This document shows positions 62,957-64,000 of a DNA stretch of 64,000 nt, piece by piece. The notes under the pieces are model-generated. The model was given only the letters and a program-made list of their open reading frames with translations. It had not been told where the DNA came from and did not search any database. The stretch is from Escherichia coli (GTDB lineage: Bacteria > Pseudomonadota > Gammaproteobacteria > Enterobacterales > Enterobacteriaceae), in NCBI RefSeq assembly GCF_003018255.1, contig NZ_CP027440.1; one strand, 5' to 3'. Made by a program: the position numbers and the translations under genes. Each line of letters opens with the position of its first letter. The stretch's first letter is position 1.

Positions 62957-63075
62957 TGCCTCACTCCTGCCGTGAAATTCATTGTTTTGATAATCGCTGG
63001 CAGAAGCATAAACAGAACTATGCCGGAAGGCAAAAGCGCGACACAATAGAGGATTACCCAACAAAGGATGACTTT

Positions 63076-63534
63076 ATGACAATTTGGGTGGATGCCGACG
63101 CGTGTCCCAATGTAATTAAAGAGATTTTGTATCGCGCGGCGGAACGTATGCAGATGCCGCTGGTACTGGTAGCAAACCAGAGTTTACGCGTGCCGCCATC
63201 GCGATTTATTCGTACGCTGCGCGTCGCGGCAGGTTTCGACGTTGCCGATAACGAAATTGTCCGGCAGTGTGAAGCGGGCGATTTGGTGATCACCGCAGAT
63301 ATACCTCTGGCTGCTGAAGCCATCGAGAAAGGCGCGGCGGCGCTTAATCCTCGCGGCGAACGTTACACGCCAGCGACCATTCGTGAGCGCCTGACGATGC
63401 GCGATTTTATGGATACCTTACGTGCCAGTGGGATCCAGACCGGCGGACCAGATAGTCTTTCACAACGTGACCGCCAGGCCTTTGCCGCGGAGCTGGAGAA
63501 GTGGTGGCTGGAAGTGCAACGTAGTCGTGGCTAA
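63076..63534 (+). CDS. yaiI: UPF0178 family protein
   Basis: 152 aa from ATG 63076 ([12 protein letters not shown]). Confidence 0.88.
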
Positions 63535-63611
63535 ATGTAATTTATTATTTACACTTCATTCTTGAATATTTATTGGTATAGTAAGGGATGTATTGATATT
63601 TTCACCTTAAG

Positions 63612-63659
63612 TGGAATTTTTTCTTTACAATCGAAATTGTACTAGTTTGATGGTATGAT
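63612..63659 (+). promoter_or_regulatory. aroL promoter/operator region: TyrR box TGGAAT-N6-TTTACA (63612-63629), TrpR-like GTACTAGTT (63639-63647), -10 TATGAT (63654-63659)
   Basis: Motifs seen in sequence; aroL is known to be controlled by TyrR and TrpR. Confidence 0.65.
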
Positions 63660-63716
63660 CGCTATTCTCATGATACCGGCTTTCGCCGCATTGCGACCTA
63701 TTGGGGAAAACCCACG

Positions 63717-64000
63717 ATGACACAACCTCTTTTTCTGATCGGGCCTCGGGGCTGTGGTAAAACAACGGTCGGAATGGCCCTTGCCGATTCGCTTAACCGT
63801 CGGTTTGTCGATACCGACCAGTGGTTGCAATCACAGCTCAATATGACGGTCGCGGAGATCGTCGAAAGGGAAGAGTGGGCGGGATTCCGCGCCAGAGAAA
63901 CGGCGGCGCTGGAAGCGGTAACTGCGCCATCCACCGTTATCGCTACAGGCGGCGGCATTATTCTGACGGAATTTAATCGTCACTTCATGCAAAATAACGG
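63717..64000 (+). CDS. aroL: shikimate kinase II (3' partial, runs off the window)
   Basis: ATG 63717, N-terminus [19 protein letters not shown] with Walker A motif; no stop before the window end. Confidence 0.9.

Follow-up and report, generated by a model that had tools for sequence, protein, structure and literature searches.

Where do the two aromatic amino-acid repressors act at aroL, and on which promoter? The aroL(M) transcription unit of Escherichia coli is repressed by TyrR together with tyrosine, and reviews and databases also list it as a target of TrpR. Among Enterobacteriales the control of aroLM by TyrR is conserved, and TrpR control is confined to close relatives. In the accepted model of repression at both aroLM and aroF, TyrR forms hexamers in response to tyrosine, and aroL expression goes up upon tyrR knock-down or in TyrR DNA-binding mutants. 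A first-pass annotation of a 64-kb stretch of E. coli DNA, the whole of which we refer to as the window, described an aroL leader with one TyrR and one TrpR motif lying directly over the probable −35/−10 region, and read this arrangement as dual repression by a known mechanism.

The DNA in front of aroL is very probably the control region of the aroL-yaiA-aroM operon, with three TyrR boxes, one TrpR operator, a classical promoter (P1) located between box 3 and boxes 2 and 1, and a second transcription start (P2); binding, looping and the pairing of each repressor with a promoter are features that we infer or take from the literature. The aroL operators are already known (described 1986-1994), and the first-pass annotation rightly treated this long-described control region as such; P2 as a target of TrpR may be the sole new element.

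Genomic context of the aroL control region

The window ends in 3 kb of E. coli chromosome that comprise a dgcC/adrA-like ORF, proC on the minus strand, and yaiI and aroL on the plus strand. Of 5426 complete E. coli genomes, 5425 contain a match, with 97-100% identity, to a 601-nt stretch spanning the yaiI-aroL motifs, and the RefSeq annotation of the matching genomes names the same two genes, yaiI and aroL. The yaiI stop codon (63532-63534, plus strand) was placed by alignment to K-12 MG1655. The coding sequence of aroL, for shikimate kinase II, begins at 63717, runs on the plus strand to 64000 and continues past the window end; it is annotated in RefSeq and aligns to K-12 b0388. Its ATG (63717-63719) corresponds to K-12 aroL at 406405, and the start codon assumed in the first-pass annotation, whose interval ended on the preceding base (63716), is thus confirmed. 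A ribosome-binding site, GGGGAA (63703..63708, plus strand), ends 8 nt 5′ of the ATG within a zone (63702-63709) with a mean conservation of 0.92.

Comparison with the K-12 aroL promoter, which had been proposed as a check, shows that this is the same locus as the K-12 aroL (aroLM) promoter-operator region, with the gene order proC-yaiI-aroL shared and allelic differences only. The yaiI-aroL spacer is 182 bp long and departs from MG1655 at four bases (63588 A/G, 63597 T/G, 63606 C/T and 63674 T/C), all of them outside boxes 1 and 3, the TrpR site and the two −10 elements. Three of them (63588, 63597 and 63606) lie in or beside the weak TyrR box 2. Perfect (100%) identity over the segment carrying box 1, the TrpR site and P2 is seen in 3635 of 5398 matching E. 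coli genomes, and over the segment carrying box 3 and P1 in 2878 of 5285.

Transcripts may also enter this region from upstream. SMRT-Cappable-seq reports ‘novel’ read-through transcripts covering yaiI-aroL-yaiA(-aroM-...) that start just 5′ of yaiI (U00096.3 405741; window about 63050-63717), and a promoter/terminator scan found no terminator-like site between yaiI and aroL. Taken together, these observations suggest that part of the aroL mRNA may originate at the yaiI promoter, in which case it would be transcribed across DNA bound by TyrR and TrpR.

TyrR boxes and the TrpR operator

The numbering of the boxes and the layout of three TyrR boxes and one TrpR site follow what we take to be the scheme of DeFeyter et al. 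1986, Heatwole & Somerville 1992 and Lawley & Pittard 1994. A TyrR box was recognised as a palindrome of the form TGTAAA-N6-TTTACA that retains its symmetric G and C (G-N14-C). The best match is the strong box 3, TGTAATTTATTATTTACA (63536..63553), with a single mismatch and its centre at −45.5 from P1. The strong box 1, TGGAATTTTTTCTTTACA (63612..63629), reads TGGAAT-N6-TTTACA, has two mismatches and covers +23..+40 relative to P1 and −55..−38 relative to P2. The weak box 2, TGTATTGATATTTTCACC (63589..63606), is centred at +8.5 from P1; it has four consensus mismatches and keeps the symmetric G and C. The centres of box 2 (63597.5) and box 1 (63620.5) are 23 bp apart, an arrangement recognisable in Escherichia only, and 23 bp from centre to centre is the typical spacing of adjacent boxes in the TyrR regulon. 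Boxes 3 and 1 together form a 22-nt direct repeat with 82% identity and a step of 76 bp.

Only the second of the two strong boxes had been recorded in the first-pass annotation, which overlooked two of the three boxes, namely box 3 and the weak box 2, and whose interval, beginning at 63541, cut through box 3, the strongest TyrR box. The two motifs that it did record, TGGAATTTTTTCTTTACA at 63612-63629 and GTACTAGTT at 63639-63647, are located precisely where it had put them, and their reading as box 1 of the TyrR set and as the left part of a TrpR operator is supported by clustering, by the TrpR weight matrix and by conservation.

A TrpR operator is expected to follow a palindromic pattern of about 18 bp with ACTAGT/CTAG cores (GTACTAGTT.AACTAGTAC). 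A weight matrix was built from the trp, trpR, mtr and aroH operators taken from their K-12 loci, and the aroL 18-mer, GTACTAGTT + TGATGGTAT (63639..63656), obtains the top score in the 64-kb window, 14.3 bits, narrowly ahead of chance matches at 13.9 and 12.9 bits. This is less than the leave-one-out scores of the four K-12 operators, which range from 15.4 to 21.1 bits. The left half (63639-63647) is a perfect match (9/9), and the right half agrees at 4/9 positions. Relative to P1 the operator spans +50..+67 and does not overlap the core promoter; relative to P2 it spans −28..−11 and does.

Taken one at a time, the motifs do not reach significance by their sequence. The 64-kb window holds four TyrR-box matches with at most two mismatches against 2.3 expected; the exact TrpR 9-mer occurs once, and with at most one mismatch there are six occurrences against 5.3 expected. 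The signal resides in clustering, TrpR scoring and conservation: two of the four TyrR-box matches lie 76 bp apart and directly 5′ of aroL.

Two transcription starts upstream of aroL

The classical start, aroLp or P1, which is the one curated in databases, maps to 63590 on the plus strand in three start-site datasets and gives a 5′-UTR of 127 nt. Kim et al. 2012 (PLoS Genet, Table S1) report a sole aroL start at NC_000913.2 405502 (+), with 136 reads and a UTR of 127, and an upstream string that ends ...TATAGTAAGGGGTG (also given as ...TTGGTATAGTAAGGGGTG). Cappable-seq (Ettwiller et al. 2016) detects 405502 with a read score of 4.74 and a log2 enrichment of 6.2, and SMRT-Cappable-seq (Yan et al. 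2018) contains an aroL-yaiA-aroM transcript from 406277 (U00096.3). Seven to eight nt 5′ of this start lies an extended −10 element, TGgTATAGT (63574..63582, plus strand; hexamer 63577-63582), accompanied by a poor −35 region. A consensus promoter scan did not call P1, since no −35 hexamer reaches 4/6.

The same scan finds only one hexamer-consensus promoter match in the region: TCGAAA-17-TATGAT with an upstream TG (63631-63659, plus strand). It consists of a poor −35-like hexamer, TCGAAA (63631..63636, 4/6), placed 17 bp from TATGAT, and an extended −10 element, TGgTATGAT (63651..63659), with 9/12 matches and the TG. This is presumably the promoter behind the claim that the motifs cover the −35/−10 region. 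A start designated P2 lies 7-8 nt 3′ of TGgTATGAT, at 63666..63667 on the plus strand, and would give a 5′-UTR of 50-51 nt. It appears in two cap-capture datasets: Cappable-seq calls U00096.2 405579 (+), window 63667, with a read score of 7.35 and a log2 enrichment of 3.87, and SMRT-Cappable-seq, carried out on separate RNA, defines an aroL-yaiA transcript class from 406353 (U00096.3), window 63666. Cappable-seq captures 5′-triphosphate ends, here from mid-log cells in M9 glucose, and its calls need a read score of 1.5 plus enrichment; both P2 sources come from the same laboratory. P2 is not among the starts in the list of Kim et al. 2012. Both P1 and P2 are thus mapped 5′-triphosphate starts preceded by a σ70-type extended −10 element (TGnTATAAT-like) at a distance within the expected 6-8 nt.

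Whether the operators overlie the promoter therefore depends on which start is considered. For the mapped P1 the claim of the first-pass annotation does not hold: box 1 (+23..+40) and the TrpR motif (+50..+58) lie in the transcribed leader, in agreement with the word ‘leader’ in its own title. For the secondary P2 it does hold. The TrpR operator spans the spacer and −10 of P2, and box 1, whose centre is at −46.5, adjoins its −35. The geometry of box 3 and P1 recurs as that of box 1 and P2, displaced 76-77 bp downstream, and the TGGTAT elements of the two promoters are 77 bp apart. A caution for annotation follows: promoter spotting based on hexamers selects P2 and overlooks the mapped main promoter P1, because the latter relies on an extended −10 and has no −35 that could be recognised.

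The transcript maps also contain a very weak antisense start at window 63628 on the minus strand (NC_000913.2 405540, 4 reads; Kim et al. 2012), which was assigned to proC. It falls inside the zone of box 1 and the TrpR site, and its −10, TACAAT, is the reverse complement of 63636-63641; it was not found among the Cappable-seq positions listed.

A conservation footprint in Escherichia and Citrobacter

A scan with K-12 AroL, using one genome per species, returned loci from six Escherichia, 18 Citrobacter and one Winslowiella species in addition to distant matches (L027-L043), which are generic shikimate kinases and were left out. The scan returned no Salmonella, Klebsiella or Enterobacter locus, and for this reason the footprint spans two genera only, Escherichia and Citrobacter. 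The alignment holds 25 sequences: the window itself and the 24 loci from Escherichia and Citrobacter.

Seven motif blocks, 51 columns in all, have a mean conservation of 0.96, compared with 0.73 for the other 131 columns of the spacer, and none of 10,000 random 51-column sets attains the value of the motifs. Both strong TyrR boxes are present in all 24 loci, starting 179-183 and 104-107 nt 5′ of the ATG. Conservation is concentrated in the arms, at 0.91-1.00 overall (1.00 and 0.99 in box 3, 0.93 and 0.91 in box 1), whereas the N6 spacers vary (0.77-0.90, with 0.77 in box 1). Box 2 has a mean conservation of 0.65 and is unrecognisable in Citrobacter. In 21 of the 24 loci the distance between ACTAGT and the ATG is fixed, and GTACTAGTT as a whole reaches 0.97. 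The two extended −10 elements are conserved at 0.96 (TGnTATAGT of P1) and 0.98 (TGnTATGAT of P2), with eight of nine columns invariant in each; only the n varies, which in P2 (G63653) is G or A. Variation within the motifs thus falls on the N6 spacers between the box arms and on the n position of each TGnTATxxT element. The −35 zones are conserved at 0.69-0.79 and the remaining leader at about 0.76; the sequence of the P2 −35 hexamer is unconserved, and Citrobacter has TTGGCG there.

Distances between the elements differ in their constancy. The interval separating box 1 from the TrpR core (ACTAGT) shifts by 1-2 bp among species, between 29 and 31 bp, and the one between the TrpR core and TGnTATGAT is constant across the species compared (L008-L026 and the window in both cases). 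The constant distance on one side and the variable distance on the other suggest that the TrpR site may act as a single unit with the P2 −10, and not with box 1.

The leader contains one further conserved feature, a stem-loop of the form UCGC-N6-GCGA (63683..63696, plus strand) in the 5′-UTR, 6 nt 5′ of the ribosome-binding site. In 23 distinct Escherichia/Citrobacter sequences 98.9% of its cells are paired and the loop varies, and there is one compensatory change at the level of clades, from U-A in Escherichia to C-G in Citrobacter. With four pairs and a single evolutionary event behind it, this small structure might serve in mRNA stability or in translation.

Repression by TyrR and TrpR

In the presence of plentiful tyrosine, TyrR bound to box 3 on the 5′ side and to boxes 2 and 1 on the 3′ side would bracket P1 and silence it, and in the literature model a TyrR hexamer joins box 3 to boxes 2 and 1 and loops the DNA around P1. 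Relative to P1, box 1 and the TrpR operator would then be operators located in the leader. Boxes 1 and 3 are reportedly essential and box 2 dispensable, which agrees with the clustering of K-12 differences in and around box 2 and with its lack of conservation in Citrobacter. DNase hypersensitivity suggestive of looping is said to have been observed, as is protection of the aroL site by TrpR.

Relative to P2, TyrR at box 1 would crowd the −35 side and TrpR with tryptophan would occupy the core promoter. With the TrpR operator lying across the spacer and −10 and box 1 adjoining the −35, both repressors appear placed to block the binding of polymerase at P2. We tentatively propose that two tandem modules, each with an extended −10 promoter downstream of a TyrR box, drive aroL and that TrpR acts solely on P2 by promoter occlusion; this is a possible reading that we would not yet bet on. 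It could accommodate two reported properties of the system. The TrpR effect is reportedly limited to tyrR+ cells whose TyrR boxes are intact; promoter masking might account for this, in that a de-repressed P1 would swamp P2. Inserting 4 bp between box 1 and the TrpR site reportedly increases tyrosine repression and abolishes the tryptophan effect, and such an insertion would fall in the −35/spacer of P2 and could destroy it. Read as tandem modules, the region would require neither a contact between the TyrR and TrpR proteins nor a downstream roadblock.

The term ‘dual repression’ itself needs to be qualified. Repression by both proteins is established according to reviews and databases, so this part of the first-pass annotation stands, but the two contributions are very unequal: in a 2025 preprint aroL responds to tyrR knock-down, and trpR knock-down has no measurable effect on transcripts or on a reporter. 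The share of TrpR in aroL control would consequently be small under the conditions of that preprint, and the operator may add little in vivo.

Alternative explanations

Two alternatives deny the operators altogether. The motifs could be chance matches in AT-rich intergenic DNA, devoid of operator function, and the single-motif counts in the window are indeed no higher than in shuffled sequence; yet the motifs are clustered, fixed in position and conserved in their arms only, in Escherichia as well as Citrobacter, and tyrR dependence of aroL has been reported. The conservation footprint excludes this explanation, to which we assign a negligible probability. Alternatively, control might be exerted by a cis-acting leader RNA, an attenuator or riboswitch, instead of protein operators, as the long 127-nt 5′-UTR of P1 and the small conserved 4-bp hairpin at 63683-96 would allow. 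However, the 136-nt leader folds no better than its shuffles (z = −0.86), an Rfam search of the leader gave no match below E = 0.5, the region holds no terminator-like site, and the conserved blocks coincide with DNA palindromes and promoter hexamers, not with paired RNA. Such a device is rejected on the z-score of the fold and the absent Rfam family, and we consider it very improbable.

A more serious alternative concerns P2. Possibly P1 is the only promoter that counts. Box 1 and the TrpR operator would then be purely downstream operators, working either as a roadblock or through a loop to box 3; the start at 63666/7 would be spurious low-level initiation with no regulatory role, and TGGTATGAT would be conserved as the right half of the TrpR site. 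We regard this as a live option, somewhat short of an even chance. That 41% of the Cappable-seq calls are novel, with weak ones running into the thousands, and that Kim et al. 2012 list P1 as the sole aroL start fit it well, but in the same Cappable-seq library P2 has a higher read score than P1 (7.35 versus 4.74) with a log2 triphosphate enrichment of 3.9, and P2 was also called in an independent long-read library. The papers on aroL that we found use one promoter name only, ‘aroLp’, a point in favour of a single promoter; a full-text literature search on aroL (TyrR box, looping, transcription start, aroLp) found no paper that gives box or start-site positions. The right half of the operator can be argued either way. 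GGTAT (63652-56) resembles the right arm of the mtr operator, GGTAC, as the alternative predicts; the sole variable base in 63651-59, however, is G63653, which is the free n of TGnTATGAT and yet the G of the CTAG core in a symmetric TrpR half-site. This variation suits a promoter element better than a half-site, although both constraints may be acting. All other known TrpR operators (trp, aroH, trpR, mtr) overlap a core promoter, and an operator at +50 would be exceptional, which also speaks against P1 being the sole target.

Comparison with other TyrR and TrpR targets

At aroF-tyrA and tyrP a box adjoins or overlaps the −35, and tyrosine-dependent repression proceeds via TyrR oligomerisation. 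Both belong to the TyrR regulon (Pittard, Camakaris & Yang 2005), with strong and weak TGTAAA-N6-TTTACA boxes whose adjacent centres are 23 bp apart. The aroL region shares with them the combination of strong and weak boxes, the 23-bp spacing, a box adjoining a −35 and repression by tyrosine. It differs in that boxes 2 and 1 lie 3′ of the P1 start and the distant box 3 lies 5′ of it, so that P1 is bracketed, not covered. With the operators of trpLEDCBA, aroH, trpR and mtr the aroL site has the core GTACTAGT in common, and its left half equals the consensus; unlike them it has a degenerate right half (4/9) and a lower score, and it lies far downstream of P1 (+50).

In Klebsiella pneumoniae (NC_009648, about 371188-371382) a TyrR-like box, TGCAATGATAAGTTTACA, is found at −20..−3 of the mapped aroL start, with a UTR of 144 nt (Kim et al. 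2012, Tables S1/S5). According to the tables of the same study, AroL of K. pneumoniae is 61% identical to E. coli AroL, compared with about 80-90% for most neighbours and 60.7% for aroM, and an extra gene on the minus strand, KPN_00331, is inserted between yaiI and aroL. It seems that aroL is subject to the same regulator there, with a different promoter architecture.

Compared with the classical description of K-12 aroL, what is added here is P2, from cap-capture data. To our knowledge, the classical aroL papers do not treat P2.

Implications for aroL regulation

For the most part our analysis confirms the aroL start codon and re-identifies known operators. If P2 is a genuine TrpR-controlled promoter, the aroL operator would obey the rule that TrpR operators overlap core promoters, and the oddity of its placement about 50 nt downstream would disappear. 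P2 would then explain the apparent synergy between TyrR and TrpR by promoter masking and not by synergy between the proteins themselves, and it would be useful for engineering aroL expression in the production of aromatic compounds.
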